From Dehalococcoidia bacterium (GTDB taxonomy: Bacteria > Chloroflexota > Dehalococcoidia > Lucifugimonadales > UBA2985): a DNA stretch of 64,000 bases. The notes beneath the pieces were generated by a model. The model ran no database searches. It had not been told where the DNA came from and was given only the letters and a program-made list of their open reading frames with translations. The stretch spans positions 793 to 64,792 of the forward strand of contig CAUZMC010000001.1 in NCBI GenBank assembly GCA_963580875.1, written 5' to 3'. The translations under genes were made by a program, and so were the position numbers. Each line of letters begins with the position of its first letter. The first letter of the stretch is position 1. Of the stretch, positions 983-63,240 are shown piece by piece.

Positions 983-2466
983 GAGAAGATACAAGAAATA
1001 TGGAGCGTAACCGACGCTTGTTGATGGAGCGAAGTGCTCCAGGAAGGATTGGGGTCGCTCTGCCCGCACTGGATGTGCCTTTACAGCCTCTTCCTTCAGA
1101 GGAACAGTTAAGGGACTACTTGGAACTTCCGGAGGTGAGCGAGGGTGAGGTTGTGAGGTACTTTACAAGCTTGAGTCAGATGAACTTCTCTGTGGATACC
1201 AATTTCTATCCGTTGGGTAGCTGCACCATGAAGTACAACCCAAAGATCAACGATGAGGTGGCTGGATTTCCGGGGTTCTCGCAGATTCACCCATTGCAGC
1301 CGGAAGAAACCGTCCAGGGAGCATTGAAACTCGCTTTTCAGCTTCAGGGGTTTATGTCCGAGATTGTTGGTATGGAAGCCACAAGTTTGGCTACTATGGC
1401 CGGTGCACAGGGAGAGTTGGCAGGCATGCTTATGATACGTGCTTATCACCGGTCACATGGAGATGAGTCCCGTAGGACAGTTCTAGTGCCAGATAGCGCC
1501 CACGGCACAAACCCGGCTTCTGCTGCCATGTGCGGCTTCCATGTTGTGAGCATACCATCCGACGCCAGAGGCAACATGGATGTAGATGCCCTCAGAGAGG
1601 CATGCGATTCTGAGACGGCTGGTCTTATGCTCACCTTACCAAATACCCTTGGACTCTTCGATACCAACATTCTGGAGATATGTCGCGTCGTGCATGAAGC
1701 GGGAGGGCTGGTATATGGTGATGGCGCAAACATGAATGCCATGCTGGGCCAGACAAAGCTGGGTGAACTGGGCTTCGACGTGTTGCACATTAACCTCCAT
1801 AAAACTTTTAGCACTCCACACGGAGGAGGAGGCCCTGGTGCAGGGCCTGTGTCTGCCAATTCAATTCTAGCTCCGTTCTTAGCTTCACCAGTGATTGAGA
1901 AGGTGACAGCCAGCGATAGCGATGAAGAGGTTTACCGTCTAGCAGAGCCAGAGCAAAGCATTGGTAAGACAGCGGCATTCCACGGCAACTTTGGGATGCT
2001 GGTCAGGGCCTATACTTACATTCGTGGTCTCGGAGCCGAAGGATTGAGGGAGATAAGCGATAACGCCGTCATCAATGCTAACTATATACTCAATGCCCTG
2101 AAGGATTATTACCATCTCCCATACGACCGTTCATGTATGCATGAGGTGGTCTTTTCAGCGAAGACCCAGAAGGTGGTCGGAGTAAGTGCCCTTGATGTTG
2201 CTAAGCGTCTCATAGACTACGGCATTCATCCGCCTACCATGTATTTTCCTCTGATTGTTGAGGAAGCCTTGATGATAGAGCCAACGGAGACTGAGAGCAA
2301 GGAGACTCTGGACTACTTTATCCAGGTGATGAAAGACATTGCCATGGAGGCAAATGAAGATGCACAAGTGTTGAAAGATGCACCTCACTACACACCAAAC
2401 AGTCGATTGGACGAAGCTAGAGCCGCTCGCAGGCCTGACCTTCGCTGGAAACCCTCAGAGGATTAA
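979..2466 (+). CDS. gcvPB: Glycine dehydrogenase (decarboxylating) subunit 2
   Basis: 495-aa ORF with an ATGA overlap onto gcvPA. It carries the PLP-lysine region 'HINLHKTFSTPHGGGGPG' and 'PDSAHGTNPASA', typical of GcvPB. An alternative ATG at 1000 is possible. Confidence 0.92.
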   Translation: MREDTRNMERNRRLLMERSAPGRIGVALPALDVPLQPLPSEEQLRDYLELPEVSEGEVVRYFTSLSQMNFSVDTNFYPLGSCTMKYNPKINDEVAGFPGFSQIHPLQPEETVQGALKLAFQLQGFMSEIVGMEATSLATMAGAQGELAGMLMIRAYHRSHGDESRRTVLVPDSAHGTNPASAAMCGFHVVSIPSDARGNMDVDALREACDSETAGLMLTLPNTLGLFDTNILEICRVVHEAGGLVYGDGANMNAMLGQTKLGELGFDVLHINLHKTFSTPHGGGGPGAGPVSANSILAPFLASPVIEKVTASDSDEEVYRLAEPEQSIGKTAAFHGNFGMLVRAYTYIRGLGAEGLREISDNAVINANYILNALKDYYHLPYDRSCMHEVVFSAKTQKVVGVSALDVAKRLIDYGIHPPTMYFPLIVEEALMIEPTETESKETLDYFIQVMKDIAMEANEDAQVLKDAPHYTPNSRLDEARAARRPDLRWKPSED

Positions 2467-2473
2467 TTACACA

Positions 2474-3997
2474 ATGAAAGTGGTTTCTTCTGCAGAAAAA
2501 AGAACAGCTCGGTTTGTAGAACAGTTTGGCGACATGTTGCGTGATCGTCGGCTGATACTTGTAAGCAATAGAGGGCCTGTGGAATATCAACTTTCACCTG
2601 AGGATAACCTTCAGGCTCGTCATGGCAGTGGTGGAGTAGTAACTGCTCTCAGCACTCTGATAGATTACGTTGATTTCACTTGGGTTTCAAGTGCCATGGG
2701 AGAAGGGGATCGTCGTGTTGCAAAGCAAGCAGAGGATGGAAGGGTCAAGTCTCCTCTGACAGGGCAGAAACTCTATTTGAGGTACGTTGTCACACCAAGA
2801 CGTGTGTACCACAAATTCTACAATATATTCTGTAACCCACTTCTCTGGTTTCTTCAGCATTATATGTGGAGTTCCACATATACTCCTAATGTGGACGAAT
2901 CTGTATATGATGCCTGGGCGACGGGATATATCCCGGTCAATCGGTCATTTGCAGATGCAGTATTGGAAGAGGCCAAGCATAGCGTGTTACCTCCCTACGT
3001 CATGCTTCACGATTATCACCTCTATCTCGTTCCAGGAATGGTACGAGAGTCTTTGCCGGAAGCCATAATACAGCACTTTCTACATATTCCGTGGCCGGAA
3101 ACAGTTTATTGGCAGATGATCCCGGCCTTTATGCGAACTGCCATCTGTGAAAGCCTCTGTGCTAGCGACATAATAGGATTTCAAACGTTACGGGACGTAC
3201 GTAGTTTCCTGCATAGTTGCGAAATATTCATAGATGAGTGTACTGTTGATCATAAGAAATGTACGGTTACCTTGAATGGGCGGGAAACATCAGTCCGGTG
3301 CTATCCCATCTCCATAGATGTAGAAGAGGTGAAGGAGATTGCCAACTCTCCTAGGGCATTGGAATACGAGAAGAAGCTCAAACCTCTATTGGGTGAGAAA
3401 ACTATTATTAGGGTGGATCGCGTGGAGCCCAACAAGAACATTCTCAGGGGTTTCAGAGCCTATCGTCTTTTTCTGGAACGGAACAAGGATTTCATTGGGA
3501 AGGTTAAATTCCTAGCATTTCTTGTCCCGTCGAGGACACACATAAGGCAGTACCAAAGATACCTTCAGGAAGTGGATGCCCTGGTTGCTGAGATCAATCA
3601 GGACTTCGGCACCGAGGACTGGCAACCCATAACAGTCTTTTACGAGAACAACTATATACAAGCTATGGCTGCAATGAAACTATACGACGTTCTTTTGGTC
3701 AACTCCGTAATAGATGGAATGAACCTGGTGGCTAAAGAGGGTCCAGTGGTCAACTCTCAGAGCGGCATAGTAGTCCTCTCGGAGACTGCCGGTGCATACG
3801 CTCAACTACATGAGGGTGTTTTGGCTGTGGCTGCTGCAGATGTGGAAGGCACAGCTCAGGCCCTCTACCAAGCCATAACAGCATCCTTAGAAGACAGAGA
3901 GAAGCGTGCCAACATGCTTGTTCAGAAGATAGAAAAAGAGGACATAATCTACTGGATGGAATCACAGATAGAGGATATGAAGTCCCTGGTCAGCTAG
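2474..3997 (+). CDS. GT20-family glycosyltransferase (trehalose-6-phosphate synthase / glucosylglycerol-phosphate synthase-like)
   Basis: The track ORF is trimmed to ATG 2474, which lies 7 nt after the gcvPB stop. 'LILVSNRGPVEY', 'GSGGVVTAL' and 'FCNPLLWFLQHYMW' correspond to OtsA/GgpS N-terminal signature motifs. The sugar acceptor cannot be decided from sequence. Confidence 0.75.
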   Translation: MKVVSSAEKRTARFVEQFGDMLRDRRLILVSNRGPVEYQLSPEDNLQARHGSGGVVTALSTLIDYVDFTWVSSAMGEGDRRVAKQAEDGRVKSPLTGQKLYLRYVVTPRRVYHKFYNIFCNPLLWFLQHYMWSSTYTPNVDESVYDAWATGYIPVNRSFADAVLEEAKHSVLPPYVMLHDYHLYLVPGMVRESLPEAIIQHFLHIPWPETVYWQMIPAFMRTAICESLCASDIIGFQTLRDVRSFLHSCEIFIDECTVDHKKCTVTLNGRETSVRCYPISIDVEEVKEIANSPRALEYEKKLKPLLGEKTIIRVDRVEPNKNILRGFRAYRLFLERNKDFIGKVKFLAFLVPSRTHIRQYQRYLQEVDALVAEINQDFGTEDWQPITVFYENNYIQAMAAMKLYDVLLVNSVIDGMNLVAKEGPVVNSQSGIVVLSETAGAYAQLHEGVLAVAAADVEGTAQALYQAITASLEDREKRANMLVQKIEKEDIIYWMESQIEDMKSLVS

Positions 3998-4454: not shown

Positions 4455-5237
4455 CTAGTCGTAATCCTCGTCGTCGTCATCATCCTCGTCATCATCTTGT
4501 TGAGGTGAGGCTCCTGGTAAAGATAGCCTTGGTAATAACCCGTTGGACTGGTCATGTTTTGTCTTACGTGGAGGAAGTCCGTCTATGGCATCTCGTACCT
4601 GGATGGCGTCTTCCAGTTTCATGATCCTCATATCTACGACGATTCCTTGAATACCAACGTCCTGCAGAACGACCATTTCATTTCGGTTCAAAGTTTGTGC
4701 ACGTACAAGAAGAATGGGTTTGGAAGTCAGGTCTCTTATGGAGCGGATCTGCATAAGGTCCTTCACTGACATTGGTAAGTTTTCTTCCAGTCCGGTAAGG
4801 AGTACAGCATCCACTGGTATCTCCTCAAGAGAGTGTCCAAGCTCCTCCGGGAACCCGACCGGTATGGTTATTAACTTACCCAAATTCTCTTCAGCAAGTA
4901 CCTCCACATTGGTGTCTAGACTGGAGAATATGAAAAAATCTCCGCCTCCACCTTTGAGGGCATCAAGGGAGTCTTTTGTTAGAGTATCAGGCCACAACCC
5001 CCATGGGTAATCTCCCCACATGTCCTTTGCTGCCTTGAGTTCTGGTTTTCCCACCTTGCTCCCGACAACAATGTAGGAGTCCGCTTTTAGTTGAGCACTG
5101 GATATTGTTGGCTTTGTTCCGGATAGAGCTACGAGCACCAAAGAAGGAGCTTTATTGGCAGCACGGTTGACTCCGAAACCAATAGGTACCGGTGTAAACA
5201 TGCCTACTTTTTCAAGGCGCTCAATCAGCTTGCTCAT
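4455..5237 (-). CDS. Hypothetical protein with a poly-acidic C-terminal tail
   Basis: 260-aa ORF with an ATG start and coding-like composition. I recognise no family. The C-terminus is 'QQDDDEDDDDDEDYD'. It lies downstream of, and on the same strand as, two desulforedoxin-like micro-ORFs. Confidence 0.6.
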   Translation of the reverse strand: MSKLIERLEKVGMFTPVPIGFGVNRAANKAPSLVLVALSGTKPTISSAQLKADSYIVVGSKVGKPELKAAKDMWGDYPWGLWPDTLTKDSLDALKGGGGDFFIFSSLDTNVEVLAEENLGKLITIPVGFPEELGHSLEEIPVDAVLLTGLEENLPMSVKDLMQIRSIRDLTSKPILLVRAQTLNRNEMVVLQDVGIQGIVVDMRIMKLEDAIQVRDAIDGLPPRKTKHDQSNGLLPRLSLPGASPQQDDDEDDDDDEDYD

Positions 5238-5367
5238 GAGTATCTCCTAAAGGGAATTAACCGCACAGACAAATCTAAGCCATCCCAAAGCGATGCCTTG
5301 AAATGGTCGTTGAATCTTGCAGGGGTGTGCCAGCTTAGTACAGGAAGTATCTGTGTTTCCTGGGAAT

Positions 5368-5511
5368 TTAGTCTGAGGAGGGTAGTCTCTTCGCATCCTG
5401 AAGTGCCATCTCTTTGTCGCAACACAATGTGGGACCCTCACCAGCCTTGGTACATAGGGCTACGGTGCCACACGTATCACATTGATATCTTTTACCAAGT
5501 TCATTTGCCAT
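5368..5511 (-). CDS. Desulforedoxin-like small metal-binding protein (47 aa)
   Basis: Translated by hand; it is below the 60-aa ORF-track cut-off. The sequence is MANELGKRYQCDTCGTVALCTKAGEGPTLCCDKEMALQDAKRLPSSD. The C-x2-C-x15-C-C spacing and the flanking residues (GxxYxCxxCG...G.G.L.CC...M) match desulforedoxin and the N-terminal domain of desulfoferrodoxin. GGAGG lies 8 nt upstream of the ATG. Confidence 0.7.
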   Translation of the reverse strand: MANELGKRYQCDTCGTVALCTKAGEGPTLCCDKEMALQDAKRLPSSD

Positions 5512-5557
5512 GTCAAACCTCCGCCCTTTTCCCTAGGGCATCCGGGAATAAAGGTAT

Positions 5558-5674
5558 CTACTTTTGCTGTACAGGCTCTCCGTGGCATGACATTTCTCCA
5601 TTGCCTGCCGTGGTAACTATGAACTCAGAGCCGCAACTCTTGCAGAAATATCTCTTACCTGACTGGTTTGCCAA
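5558..5674 (-). CDS. Desulforedoxin-like small protein, Cys-to-His variant (38 aa, TTG start)
   Basis: Translated by hand as (M)ANQSGKRYFCKSCGSEFIVTTAGNGEMSCHGEPVQQK. It is a paralogue of the neighbouring micro-ORF: same N-terminus (MAN..GKRY.C) and same C-x2-C-x15 spacing, but the final CC is replaced by CH. GGAGGA lies 5 nt upstream of the TTG. Confidence 0.55.
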   Translation of the reverse strand: MANQSGKRYFCKSCGSEFIVTTAGNGEMSCHGEPVQQK

Positions 5675-5838
5675 CTCTATCCTCCATAATTATAACTTCA
5701 AGTGCATTATAGCTTTCGGATTAGCCTGGGTCAACTAGACAAGACAGCGTTTTAAGCATGAACATCGGTGTTTGTAGCAATGCCTTTGGAATTGAAAAGG
5801 CAGACATGTAAAGGATTGGTCTGATATGATGTTTACGT

Positions 5839-6732
5839 ATGACATCATCTTCAGAAACTAAAGAGAGCCCTCATCAGCGCCTACCTCCATGGTTTAAGGT
5901 GACGATGCCTGGAGGGGCCAACTACATTGAGGTGCAGAACTTGCTGCAGCAGGGCGAGCTGCATACCGTTTGCGAAGAAGCTCATTGCCCCAACATTGGG
6001 GAATGCTGGGAAAACCGTAGTGCAACTTTCATGGTTCTGGGCGACATCTGTACGCGTGCATGTCGCTATTGCGCTGTGACCACAGGTAAACCACTGGCCG
6101 TCGATATTGAGGAACCTCAACGCTTGGCCCGTACGGTTGAACGTCTTGGTCTGCGTTATTGCGTTATAACTTCGGTAGATCGGGACGATCTTCCTGACGG
6201 AGGGGCCTTCATCATCGCACAGTGCATTAAGCAGATTCGTCAAAGGTTGCCTGAGTGCCAGGTAGAAGTGCTCATACCTGACTTTCAGGGTTCGAGGTCG
6301 GCTCTTAATACGGTTATGCGTGCCGTTCCTGATGTTCTCAACCATAATATAGAGACTGTTGAGCGGATCTTCCACTCGGTCCGTCCGAGGGGAGATTACA
6401 GGCAGTCCTTGGAGTTACTGGCTACGGCCAGGGAGATAGCACCAAATGCCGTGACCAAATCTGGGATGATGGTCGGTCTTAGCGAGGAATGGGATGAAAT
6501 AGTCCGGACTATGAAGGACCTCCGCTCTGTTGATTGTGATCTCCTCACCATAGGCCAGTACTTGAGGCCGTCTAACAAGCATGTTCCAATATCTAGGTTT
6601 TACACTCCACAAGAATTTGAAGGCCTGCGAAAAGAAGGGGAACGTCTCGGTTTTCGCCACGTTGCATCCGGACCTCTTGTACGCAGTTCCTATCACGCAG
6701 AGGAGCAGTTCGTCACAGCCCGTCGCTCCTGA
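5839..6732 (+). CDS. lipA: Lipoyl synthase
   Basis: Carries both cluster motifs, 'CEEAHCPNIGECW' and the radical-SAM 'CTRACRYCAV'. The length of 297 aa fits. Confidence 0.95.
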   Translation: MTSSSETKESPHQRLPPWFKVTMPGGANYIEVQNLLQQGELHTVCEEAHCPNIGECWENRSATFMVLGDICTRACRYCAVTTGKPLAVDIEEPQRLARTVERLGLRYCVITSVDRDDLPDGGAFIIAQCIKQIRQRLPECQVEVLIPDFQGSRSALNTVMRAVPDVLNHNIETVERIFHSVRPRGDYRQSLELLATAREIAPNAVTKSGMMVGLSEEWDEIVRTMKDLRSVDCDLLTIGQYLRPSNKHVPISRFYTPQEFEGLRKEGERLGFRHVASGPLVRSSYHAEEQFVTARRS

Positions 6733-6748
6733 CGACAGCCATAATTTT

Positions 6749-8296
6749 ATGTCTTGGGCTGTTCCAGATATTCTTCTTCGTAACGCGATTGTAATTACTT
6801 TGGATCCTGCTATGCCGCGCGCTTCCTGGATAGCTATAGATCATGGCAAGATAGTCGATGTGGGTGTGGGCGAGCCTAGCATTGACGCAGGCGGTTTTAC
6901 GAAAATCATCGATTGTCGTGGCGGTACGTTGATACCAGGCTTCAATGACGCTCACTGTCACGTGCTTGCAACTGTCGCTTCACTGTTGTCGGTGGATTGC
7001 AGTCCAGCGTCCGTATCCTCTATCGAAGACATTCAGCAGAAACTGCGTGAGCGTTCCCGTTATGCCCACATGGATACATGGATACGAGGGACTGGATACA
7101 ATGAGTTTTACTTGAAGGAAAAGCGGCATCTAACACGCTGGGATCTTGACCAGGCGGTTACAGATCACCCCGTAAGACTTCTTCACCGATCAGGGCATGC
7201 GATGGTACTCAACAGCATGGCATTAGAGCTGGCGTCCATAGATGGAGGCACACAGGACCCTCCAAGCGGCGTGATAGAGCGGCAACAGGGCACAGGGGAA
7301 CCCAATGGGCTTCTCCTAGAGATGAATGATTACCTTGATGGAGTGATACCGCCTTTGTCTCAGGCCGAAATGGATATTGGCGTCGGTCAATTCAATGAGA
7401 AATGCCTTGCCCTCGGAATCACTTCACTTCAAGATGCTACTCCTGGGAATAACATGGAACGTTGGAAGTTCTTTGACAGACTTAAGAAACGTGACTTGCT
7501 TATTCCGTCTGTGACATTCATGGCGGGAGTCAGCTACTTACCGCAGTTCCTAGAAGAAGGATTCACATTCGGTTATGGGGCGAAAGGGCTTCGACTTGGT
7601 GCGGTAAAAATAATGGTCACAATGACAGCAGGGTCGCTCAGTCCGTCTAGAGATGAATTGCACAGGCTTGTGAAAGAGACACACCTATGCGGCTTTCAGG
7701 TTGCCATTCACGCCGTGGAGGCAGAGGCAGTGGAGGAGGCCGCAGAAGCCATTCATTTTGCTATTGGAGATAACGTATTTAACGAACTTCGACATCGTAT
7801 CGAACACTGCTCCGAGTGCCCGACTCATATCATAGAGAAACTGGTGCACAACGGCATAATCGTGGCCACACAACCTGGATTCTTATACCACAACGGGGAA
7901 CGCTATCTGGCCGATGTTCCTAGCGACAGGCTGCCTTGGCTATATCCAATAGGCTCTATGATGGCCAACGGGATACCGGTGGCCGCTGCCTCAGATGCCC
8001 CTGTTATTCCCATGAATCCACTTGTGGGGATATATGCCGCGGTAACTCGCAGGGCGGAATCTGGCGACACTGTGCTTCCAGGCGAATCTGTGAGTGTGGA
8101 GGATGCATTGCGTATGTATACATTGGGAAGTGCATACGCGTCATTTGAAGAACATGTTATTGGCTCCATTGCAAATGGCAAACGGGCAGACCTGGTGCTT
8201 TTGGACAGAGATCCAATGGCTGTTGGCGTAGAAGGAATTAAAGAGATCAATGTACTTATGACGATGGTGATGGGTAAAGTGGTATTTGAGAAGTAA
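6749..8296 (+). CDS. Metal-dependent amidohydrolase (Amidohydro_3 / YtcJ-like)
   Basis: The track ORF is trimmed to ATG 6749, after the lipA stop. Motifs are 'PGFNDAHCHV', 'AIHAVEAEA', 'RIEHCSE' and 'AAASDAPV', typical of the amidohydrolase superfamily. The substrate is unknown. Confidence 0.8.
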   Translation: MSWAVPDILLRNAIVITLDPAMPRASWIAIDHGKIVDVGVGEPSIDAGGFTKIIDCRGGTLIPGFNDAHCHVLATVASLLSVDCSPASVSSIEDIQQKLRERSRYAHMDTWIRGTGYNEFYLKEKRHLTRWDLDQAVTDHPVRLLHRSGHAMVLNSMALELASIDGGTQDPPSGVIERQQGTGEPNGLLLEMNDYLDGVIPPLSQAEMDIGVGQFNEKCLALGITSLQDATPGNNMERWKFFDRLKKRDLLIPSVTFMAGVSYLPQFLEEGFTFGYGAKGLRLGAVKIMVTMTAGSLSPSRDELHRLVKETHLCGFQVAIHAVEAEAVEEAAEAIHFAIGDNVFNELRHRIEHCSECPTHIIEKLVHNGIIVATQPGFLYHNGERYLADVPSDRLPWLYPIGSMMANGIPVAAASDAPVIPMNPLVGIYAAVTRRAESGDTVLPGESVSVEDALRMYTLGSAYASFEEHVIGSIANGKRADLVLLDRDPMAVGVEGIKEINVLMTMVMGKVVFEK

Positions 8297-62470: not shown

Positions 62471-62968
62471 CTATGAACCGAAACGAACATCTGACACGGT
62501 ATCCTGCCAGACGGTGTTCTTGGTGGCCCAGAAGGTCTCGGCTAGCTTGTCCACTGTTGCTACTAGATCTTTTGAGGCATCAAGGTCAACTCTCTGTTTG
62601 TTGGCGCCGCAGAGCTTTGCAGCCTTCCAGAAAGTGTCGTGTAGGTCTGGGTATTTCTCAAGATGCTCAGGCTTGAAGTAGTCGCTCCAGAGAATCGAGA
62701 GTTCATTCTTGCAGACTTGTGCATGTTCTTCTTTGACGGTTACAAGGCGCCCGAGGGTATTCTCATAGGTAGCCCAAGCGTCGGAGCTGTCGCCAGATTC
62801 CGGTTTTTTAAGCGCTTGGATTCGGATTACCATTTTCTGTACAGTCTGGGCTGCTATCTTGGCTGTGATGGGATCGTAAATTCCGCAGGGAATATCGCAG
62901 TGAGCATATCCATTTTCCGATGGGAACGCCCTGATAATTGCGCTGACAGCTTGTCTGAATATAGACAT
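62471..62968 (-). CDS. sodN: Nickel superoxide dismutase precursor
   Basis: The nickel hook 'HCDIPCGIYDP' is preceded by a 22-aa leader (MSIFRQAVSAIIRAFPSENGYA), and 'LWSDYFKPEHLEKYPDLH' is also present. Trimmed to ATG 62968 with AGGAG 9 nt upstream. Confidence 0.88.
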   Translation of the reverse strand: MSIFRQAVSAIIRAFPSENGYAHCDIPCGIYDPITAKIAAQTVQKMVIRIQALKKPESGDSSDAWATYENTLGRLVTVKEEHAQVCKNELSILWSDYFKPEHLEKYPDLHDTFWKAAKLCGANKQRVDLDASKDLVATVDKLAETFWATKNTVWQDTVSDVRFGS

Positions 62969-63240
62969 GTTTACATCTCCTAACAAAATGGATTTAAGTA
63001 GTCTATAGTTTAAATGAATGAGCTGATATTGCCAAGTGGCAAGATATATCTTTACTGGCACATTGTACTGGCTTCTCTGGTATCCTCCCAGTATCTAGGT
63101 TTATTGCTTTTGCGTATTTAATACGGCAGTATTTATATGCAATGGGACGCCGAGAACGTCGCGCACGATCAAGCTATCAGCCTTTAACCAGTTGGAGACA
63201 ATCGAAACACCATCGTTGAAATGAAGGTGTCGAGCCCCAG

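Follow-up and report, generated by a model that had tools for sequence, protein, structure and literature searches.

Paired desulforedoxin-like mini-proteins with recurrent Cys-to-His ligand replacement in Dehalococcoidia

Desulforedoxin (Dx) from D. gigas, a homodimer of one gene product with an Fe(Cys)4 centre, has been a model protein of bioinorganic chemistry for decades, and we know of no physiological function assigned to it. Here, we describe two neighbouring genes for desulforedoxin-like mini-proteins, ORF-A (short type) and ORF-B (long type; ORF, open reading frame), which belong to an old pair of paralogues. They are located in a stretch of 64,000 nt on contig CAUZMC010000001.1 of a Dehalococcoidia bacterium; this whole stretch is called the window, and all coordinates refer to it (Table 1). 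The 38-aa gene with C-H is transcribed ahead of the 47-aa gene with C-C. ORF-A carries the motif C-x2-C-x15-C-H with the ligands Cys11, Cys14, Cys30 and His31 (TGC CAC at 5587..5582, His codon CAC at 5584..5582), and ORF-B the motif C-x2-C-x15-C-C with the ligands Cys11, Cys14, Cys30 and Cys31 (TGT TGC at 5424..5419). ORF-B also has a family-invariant Cys20 (LCTKAG) and a C-terminal LPSSD tail. An earlier note on this DNA had reported two minus-strand micro-ORFs of these lengths which the ORF track had missed, with C-x2-C-x15 spacing, CC in the longer and CH in the shorter protein, and a Shine-Dalgarno sequence ahead of each, upstream of a 260-aa gene on the same strand and divergent from lipA. 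Both ORFs are present and conserved, the codons bear out the ligand residues, and the ribosome binding sites and the gene arrangement were found as described.

Table 1. Features of the desulforedoxin-like locus and further genes of the window
Feature	Position	Strand	Details and basis
ORF-A, short-type desulforedoxin-like gene	5558..5674	-	38 aa, TTG start, protein MANQSGKRYFCKSCGSEFIVTTAGNGEMSCHGEPVQQK
ORF-B, long-type desulforedoxin-like gene	5368..5511	-	47 aa, ATG start, protein MANELGKRYQCDTCGTVALCTKAGEGPTLCCDKEMALQDAKRLPSSD
Shine-Dalgarno sequence of ORF-A	5681..5685	-	GGAGG, 6 nt ahead of TTG; direct sequence reading
Shine-Dalgarno sequence of ORF-B	5522..5518	-	GGAGG, 6 nt ahead of ATG; direct sequence reading
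ORF-A/ORF-B spacer	5512..5557	-	46 nt, contains the ORF-B Shine-Dalgarno sequence; sequence
Sigma-70-like promoter candidate	5706..5734	-	TTGACC-17-TATAAT, 11/12 matches, about 32 nt ahead of the TTG of ORF-A; consensus scan only
Weak terminator-like hairpin, tentative	5280..5306	-	between ORF-B and the 260-aa gene, poor T-run; prediction
Antisense 146-aa ORF, shadow	5298..5738	+	no family match; antisense-frame analysis
lipA (lipoyl synthase)	5839..6732	+	Radical_SAM and LIAS_N, divergent from the pair; domain search
YtcJ-like Amidohydro_3 gene	6581..8296	+	downstream of lipA, same strand as lipA; domain search
Gene for 260-aa protein	4455..5237	-	directly downstream of ORF-B; ORF, no family match
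NiSOD gene	62471..63061	-	PF09055, E 1.1e-45

Both ORFs are under purifying selection, and we regard it as practically certain that they are real genes of the desulforedoxin family. The ratio of nonsynonymous to synonymous polymorphism (pN/pS) in the sense frames is 0.13 for ORF-A and 0.12 for ORF-B, ranging from 0.08 to 0.13 across relatives, and third codon positions hold 73-77% of the differences among relatives in both ORFs. The coding constraint that the earlier note had proposed to look for in relatives is present in both. The opposite reading, that the micro-ORFs are due to chance and that the genuine feature would be a 146-aa plus-strand ORF or none whatsoever, draws on this ORF being open across both genes and on an antisense ORF being open also in the loci L001 and L005. 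It is refuted by the conservation analysis, and we give it hardly any probability. In the frame of the 146-aa ORF, pN/pS reaches 3.3 over ORF-B compared to 0.12 in the sense frame; over ORF-A its antisense frame is the one that shares wobble positions, and this frame gives an appearance of constraint in any case (0.20 versus 0.13 in sense). An antisense ORF of at least 90 aa is retained in only 38 of the 136 loci with the pair described below, the length of the spacer within the pair varies modulo 3 (59/45/32), and the 146-aa ORF is without a Pfam or NCBIfam match. It is a shadow, as the earlier note had considered probable. A structured RNA was likewise rejected, as the region 5000..6000 gave no Rfam match at E <= 1. 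The case illustrates that ORF tracks with a length threshold miss conserved genes of less than 50 aa.

Family searches assigned both proteins to PF06397 (Desulfoferrod_N), with 24.0 bits for ORF-A and 23.4 bits for ORF-B at a gathering score of 23; the same family was matched by all 22 of the 22 family relatives tested (best E 7.4e-11). Scores for the domain model TIGR00319 (17.8 and 20.7 for ORF-A and ORF-B, respectively) were below its cut-off of 36.05, as were those for the desulfoferrodoxin (Dfx) equivalog TIGR00320 (15.7 and 24.6, cut-off 146.9). The best PDB match by sequence is D. gigas desulforedoxin, followed by the N-terminal domain of desulfoferrodoxin. This ranking recurs for the predicted structures obtained with AlphaFold2 (AF2). 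The model of ORF-A (predicted local distance difference test score, pLDDT, 87) has 1dxg_A as top Foldseek match in the PDB with a template modelling score (TM) of 0.88/0.93 and a root-mean-square deviation (rmsd) of 0.5 Å over 35 columns; the model of ORF-B (pLDDT 79.7, tail 59) has the same top match with a TM of 0.71/0.90 and an rmsd of 0.9 Å over 36 columns, and Dfx N-domains come next. Neither ORF has a Pfam match at E <= 1 to the rubredoxin family or to the LysW family. The desulforedoxin-like assignment of the earlier note, for which it had suggested a search of this Pfam family, is supported by the Pfam scores as well as by the superposition of both models. In detail, ORF-B shows the canonical Cys4 pattern C-x2-C ... 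C-C, and ORF-A, with His31 in place of the fourth Cys, is a ligand variant of the Desulfoferrod_N family and not a canonical member. Neither protein contains a superoxide reductase (SOR) domain, as they end after 38 and 47 aa. They are not desulfoferrodoxins, and the database name "desulfoferrodoxin" given to relatives is an over-annotation.

The long type was found in 393 species-representative genomes; the 80 of them that were fetched are nearly all metagenome-assembled genomes (MAGs) of Dehalococcoidia, Chloroflexota or SAR202, plus two Deltaproteobacteria and one member of the Binatia. Matches to the short type came from over 556 stretches of metagenome DNA. In the protein homology search, an alignment headed by a 41-aa member gave 1397 clusters, and a padded query of the 38-aa ORF-A gave one match. 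All frequencies given here refer to the best-scoring 80 loci of each scan and are biased towards relatives of the window. Of 166 sources, 136 carry a short-type gene followed by a long-type gene on one strand; the spacer between the two has a median length of 45 nt. The remaining 30 sources are mostly motif variants or contig ends, and a handful hold one type within the flank or show the reversed order. Most of the 30 apparent singles were recovered by a relaxed scan, since C-x2-C-N variants and short-type insertions escape the first pair pattern (C-x2-C-G). Alignment of the short-type and long-type profiles by hhalign gave a probability of 99.2% (E 2.9e-19, 39% identity). These results show that ORF-A and ORF-B are anciently diverged paralogues which are inherited together as a two-gene cassette in Dehalococcoidia/SAR202 and a few other lineages. 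The duplicated pair of the earlier note is indeed paralogous, but it did not arise by a local or lineage-specific duplication, since the same old heterotypic pair occurs in the 136 sources. It stays intact in at least five unrelated, changing surroundings, including lipA/amidohydrolase, MTHFR/lipA, AMP-ligase/TPR/CoA-transferase and clpC/MarR/MacAB.

Each type has its own invariant positions. Short-type proteins share E17-F18-(I/V)-V-T and a basic end (..KK), and long-type proteins share L19-C20-T-K-A-G, Q38 and a C-terminal (K/R)x(L/I)PSSD, for which the consensus ...(K/R)x(L/I)PS(S/A)D-COOH is an alternative spelling. In the long type, S45 and S46 are invariant, and 65 of the 66 unique 47-aa sequences terminate with D47. 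Within the family, no part is more conserved than this tail, which is also predicted to be flexible. TTG is the start codon of the short gene in 51 of 66 loci of the genome set and ATG in 55 of 64 loci of the metagenome set; the long gene nearly always starts with ATG. The start codon of the short gene may set the ratio of short to long translation. Long-then-short order was observed in a few loci, e.g. L105 (2762..3120) and L156 (about 1308..1655). A 122-aa call (P0134) has a long-type and then a short-type domain behind a hydrophobic N-terminus and may be a read-through of gene calling.

An exhaustive profile search with both types against 1.84 billion representatives yielded 975 matches at E <= 1e-3, of which 247 remained at E <= 1e-10. 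The ranking is headed by single chains that matched in two stretches, 34 of which are among the best 150, and by one chain that matched in four. These natural fusions consist of a short-type domain, a linker of 6-30 residues and a long-type domain ending in ..PS(S/A)D. The fused Dx-Dx proteins have a length of 81-110 aa, keep the same short-long order and occur in other phyla, with a Betaproteobacteria MAG and a Firmicutes MAG among their sources; one fusion is present on at least 23 contigs. A few of them (P0213, P0263) are without C-x2-C and yet keep the C-terminal end (two small residues, then D or E-COOH). A 195-aa protein on a 4-kb contig (P0153) comprises three to four tandem desulforedoxin-like domains, one of them with C-H as last pair. 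Because of the natural fusions, which represent Rosetta-stone evidence, the short and long products probably act together physically. Desulforedoxin is an obligate homodimer, and with the fusions this makes a heterodimer or pseudo-dimer the simplest reading.

The fourth ligand of the short type is Cys in 134, His in 19, Ser in one and Tyr in one case, and in the long type Cys in 130, His in 18 and Asp in one. Sorted by ligand 4 (short/long), 107 pairs are C/C, 13 H/C, 9 C/H and 4 H/H. Parsimony on a neighbour-joining tree requires a minimum of four Cys-to-His events for the short and of six for the long type; the tree was built from 119 unique pairs with the ligand column masked, leaving about 85 residues, and so these event numbers are rough. 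At least three separate His clades per paralogue are evident by eye. Cys is the ancestral state, and His is derived and recurrent in both paralogues. The earlier note had proposed to check for conservation of the His variant, and His is retained in close relatives of ORF-A. Two nucleotides must be exchanged to get from TGY to CAY, and a Tyr codon (TAC) as intermediate occurs once. Residues one step away from Cys (Ser, Gly, Arg, Phe and Tyr) hardly occur at ligand 4, and His is nearly the sole replacement in split pairs. This indicates that ligand 4 is still selected to bind metal, since His is the chief replacement despite the two-nucleotide change. In the fusions, ligand 4 is C, H, D or S, with H in 11 of 34 long-type domains. 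Among the split pairs, His variants are confined to marine and groundwater clades of Dehalococcoidia, including the clade of the window with its NiSOD; none was found in the sediment clade linked to AMP-ligase genes. An adaptation of the His ligand to oxygen is possible. Further variants of the short type have a shifted last Cys (..C-S-C-G..; L060, L027, L059) or a two-residue loop insertion (RGSDEGA; L064, L065, L069), and they hint at putative ligand geometries beyond C-H.

Gene neighbourhoods of the split pairs contain several recurrent genes. Within 300 nt, lipA is present in 43 of the 136 loci (45 within 3.5 kb), and an AMP-binding ligase lies directly upstream on the same strand in 32 (33 within 3.5 kb). 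At the same two distances, a YtcJ-like amidohydrolase (Amidohydro_3) occurs in 3 and 25, enoyl-CoA hydratase (ECH) in 1 and 18, and family III CoA-transferase (CoA_transf_3) in 6 and 17 of the loci. Any of ligase, CoA-transferase III, ECH or Amidohydro_3 is found within 3.5 kb in 62 of the 136. The lipA gene appears in two architectures, divergent (5'-5') in the clade of the window and convergent (3'-3') with an upstream MTHFR-like gene in a second clade; it is missing from the other split-pair contexts and from all ten fusion contexts. Eight of these ten hold genes for a ligase, CoA-transferase, ECH or amidohydrolase, often in tight operons. The gene orders observed were CoA_transf_3, ECH and PHP followed by two further CoA_transf_3; a fusion overlapping the start of an 842-aa double CoA_transf_3 and flanked by a thiolase and zf-ChsH2/OB; ECH, ECH, fusion, Amidohydro_3, AMP-binding; Acetone_carb_G, Hydantoinase A and B, fusion, AMP-binding, Amidohydro_3, ECH, CoA_transf_3; three CoA_transf_3, fusion, CoA_transf_3, ECH, AMP-binding; CoA_transf_3 twice, a MatC-like carrier and the fusion; an AMP-binding gene at a distance of one gene from the fusion; and an AMP-binding gene whose stop overlaps the start of the fusion (L179). 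Fused genes overlap the start or stop of a neighbour in L172-L174 (5001..5252), L175 (5001..5297) and L179 (328..633), the neighbours being the 842-aa double CoA_transf_3, Hydantoinase_B and the AMP-binding ligase. Such overlaps suggest that the fusions may be translationally coupled to these genes. The amidohydrolase of the window shares 41% identity over 515 aa with the neighbour of the betaproteobacterial fusion and 32% with the one of the hydantoinase cluster. Neither an oxidoreductase nor SOR nor any other redox partner recurs around the split pairs or fusions (136 loci and ten fusion contexts), and no ATP-grasp gene was found among the neighbour clusters. A specific link of the module to acyl-CoA or amidohydrolase enzymes could, in our judgement, go either way.

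Based on these observations, we propose a model to which, taken as a whole, we give somewhat less than an even chance. The products of ORF-A and ORF-B would associate 1:1 into a heterodimer, which corresponds to the homodimer of desulforedoxin but is built from two different chains, and each subunit would have a single mononuclear site for Fe or Zn, here Cys3His in the short and Cys4 in the long one. The sites would be selected for metal binding, mainly to clasp the mini-fold rather than to tune a redox potential. Cys3His is far commoner in structural Zn sites than in mononuclear Fe sites, and recombinant desulforedoxin takes up Zn as well as Fe; a structural rather than a redox role of the metal appears to us evenly balanced. 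The working surface would be the flexible, invariant C-terminal tail of the long subunit, possibly together with the invariant Cys20, and by this tail the module would dock as a small accessory subunit on a carboxylic-acid or acyl-CoA enzyme. Candidate partners are the AMP-binding ligase, the family III CoA-transferase and the YtcJ-like amidohydrolase; the nearest candidates in the window would be the lipA-amidohydrolase operon on the opposite strand and the downstream 260-aa protein. Several points weigh against this model. About 85% of the members retain the C-C ligand pair, which characterises the redox-active Fe(Cys)4 centre in desulforedoxin and suits an electron carrier equally. No ligase, CoA-transferase or ECH gene adjoins the pair in the window, where only lipA and then the amidohydrolase are found. 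The counts of CoA-transferase and ECH genes around split pairs (17-18 of 136) may be near background because Dehalococcoidia/SAR202 genomes are rich in CoA-transferase paralogues: dozens of the CaiB/BaiF type are known from SAR202, with 62 + 11 in five single amplified genomes (PMC5395668). The tight fusion contexts across phyla are harder to dismiss as background. The fusions show that the two types work together and not that a desulforedoxin-like dimer is formed; the metal content, the oligomeric state and the partners are putative throughout, and the bias of the sampled loci towards the relatives of the window bears on every frequency.

Among the alternatives, the one closest to known biochemistry is that each protein is a one-electron carrier of the rubredoxin/desulforedoxin type for oxidative-stress or other chains, with redox-active Fe(Cys)4 and Fe(Cys)3His centres in which His tunes the potential or lowers oxygen sensitivity. 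The homology to and superposition on desulforedoxin and Dfx centre I, the adjacent C-C ligands of most members, the restriction of His variants to marine and groundwater clades and the NiSOD of the window, by which the organism meets oxygen, are all in line with this idea. But the genes next to the pair and to the fusions show no recurrence of SOR, rubrerythrin, a flavodiiron protein, a reductase or any other redox partner, ligand 4 varies to H, D and S, some fusions without C-x2-C retain the tail, and neither the invariant tail nor the need for two different subunits is explained, so that we consider an electron carrier unlikely, if clearly the strongest of the rivals. A role as electron donor to LipA was set aside, because a desulforedoxin-like potential would be too high to reduce the radical-SAM cluster of this enzyme. 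The proximity of lipA within 300 nt in its two architectures and the short divergent control region common to pair and lipA in the window could also point to a small metal- or redox-sensing module which controls its neighbours by binding, e.g. lipA or Fe-S/lipoate homeostasis. As lipA is missing from the other contexts, two arrangements imply at most two rearrangement events in support of a selected linkage, and a DNA-binding domain is absent, such a sensor seems improbable.

Slightly less probable still, by analogy, would be a carrier similar to LysW, in which the C-terminal Asp carboxylate of the long subunit, or a Ser of the tail or Cys20, is covalently loaded by the AMP-binding ligase, and the intermediates undergo processing in the tethered state before the YtcJ-like amidohydrolase releases them. 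The small metal-ribbon domain with its flexible tail and invariant acidic C-terminal residue, the adenylate-forming ligase immediately upstream in 32 loci and overlapping the fusion gene in L179, and the recurrence of the same amidohydrolase subfamily across phyla fit this analogy. Sequence similarity to LysW and a nearby ATP-grasp ligase are lacking, CoA-transferases and ECH act on free CoA esters and not on protein-bound groups, and no ligase adjoins the pair in the window. The broadest form of this thought is a long shot of the same order: the module might be a new kind of carrier or adaptor, itself a protein, in a carboxylic-acid pathway which would be widespread, as yet uncharacterised and made up of AMP-binding ligase, family III CoA-transferases, ECH and YtcJ-like amidohydrolase, with the PSSD-COOH tail adenylated, loaded or inserted into the active site of a partner in the manner of LysW, and with the metal sites as structural clasps only. 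If true, this would be the first defined physiological role of the desulforedoxin fold, outside electron transfer. Should the module turn out to be one more small electron carrier, annotation would gain modestly from the finding.

Compared to known systems, the pair is closest to D. gigas desulforedoxin (1dxg, 1cfw; 36 aa), with which it shares PF06397, the size class and the stand-alone single domain. The C-x2-C-x15-C-C spacing equals that of ORF-B, and the models superpose with an rmsd of 0.5-0.9 Å. Unlike desulforedoxin, there are two diverged paralogues here (39% identity) which co-occur and are fused elsewhere; ORF-A has His for the fourth Cys, and ORF-B has an invariant fifth Cys and a conserved C-terminal tail of 10 residues. 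Furthermore, the host is a bacterium of the Dehalococcoidia/SAR202 type encoding NiSOD and not a sulfate reducer. The N-terminal centre I of desulfoferrodoxin (2Fe superoxide reductase; 1dfx, 2ji1, 1vzg) is a homologous domain with the same ligand pattern and the second-best match by sequence and structure, but the C-terminal SOR (His4Cys) domain is absent here and no SOR gene occurs in the neighbourhoods examined. Rubredoxin is alike in its small mononuclear Cys4 site on two knuckles and in a possible role as electron carrier; its second ligand pair is C-x2-C instead of adjacent C-C or C-H, and a Pfam match to it is lacking. LysW and other amino-group carrier proteins resemble the module by analogy in the metal-ribbon globule, the flexible tail, the acidic C-terminal residue and the setting in metabolic operons. 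They differ in the type of ribbon, show no detectable homology, and have a C-terminal tail of the EDWGE type and an ATP-grasp neighbour (LysX/ArgX), neither of which is seen here. A further analogy exists to DUF35/zf-ChsH2 and OB proteins with SCP2-type thiolases, the gamma subunit of acetone carboxylase and MbtH-like partners of adenylating enzymes, which are small, mostly Cys4-ribbon proteins with genes adjacent and often translationally coupled to those of ligases, thiolases or carboxylases. Genes for zf-ChsH2 and Acetone_carb_G share clusters with the fused Dx-Dx genes; the desulforedoxin-like module is of a different fold and family.

In the searchable literature on desulforedoxin and desulfoferrodoxin, no desulforedoxin was found that is paired, fused or of the Cys3His kind. 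The fold and the family as such are established; the obligate pairing of short and long type with its fusions, the recurrent Cys3His (Asp/Ser) ligands, the Cys20 and PSSD tail of the long type and the neighbourhoods are absent from this literature. The view of the earlier note that the Cys3His site and the pair are undescribed holds for the pairing, the His variant and the context, but not for the family members as such, many of which public databases already name "desulforedoxin", "desulfoferrodoxin" or "desulfoferrodoxin-like iron-binding protein". Mini-proteins of the Dx fold are common well outside the sulfate reducers, including an organism with NiSOD, and a natural heterodimeric or pseudo-dimeric Dx offers a testable handle. 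The repeatedly evolved Cys3His (Cys3Asp/Cys3Ser) versions of the distorted Fe(Cys)4 site provide a natural series for spectroscopy and metal selectivity, and the reproducible neighbourhood of AMP-binding ligase, CoA-transferase III, ECH, YtcJ-like amidohydrolase and lipA names candidate partners.

The remaining features of the window concern expression signals and flanking genes. No terminator is predicted in the 46-nt spacer between ORF-A and ORF-B. A promoter consensus scan gave 3 sites versus 1.1 expected in shuffles, among them the putative promoter of the pair (5706..5734), and the scan for terminator-like hairpins gave 1 site versus 0.5 expected. The pair and lipA have a short divergent control region in common. 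As listed, the first 152 nt of the Amidohydro_3 ORF coincide with the end of lipA (6581..6732); its true start is probably near 6749, without real overlap, because homology and the Pfam domain begin only at about residue 63-108. The 260-aa protein has a poly-acidic C-terminus (..DDDEDDDDDEDYD). It matched no Pfam family, NCBIfam yielded only noise below the thresholds, and the sequence search of the PDB turned up nothing meaningful; its gene adjoins the pair in 23 loci, all from the clade of the window, and may encode a lineage-specific partner of the pair. In locus L001, a 73-aa stand-alone biotin/lipoyl-domain protein (2700..2921, minus strand) is encoded about 3 kb from the pair in the clpC/MarR/MacAB context, maybe by coincidence despite the lipA linkage elsewhere. 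Genes for trehalose-6-phosphate synthase and phosphatase flank the locus in the clade of the window (window 2378..3997, plus strand; L005 8931..11051) and are joined in relatives by a major facilitator superfamily (MFS) transporter gene, without evident link to the pair. NiSOD, which the earlier note had correctly placed in the same genome, is linked to the pair by co-occurrence in the window and nothing more. It carries the nickel-hook motif HCDIPCGIY behind an N-terminal propeptide, and its presence implies an oxygen-exposed lifestyle.

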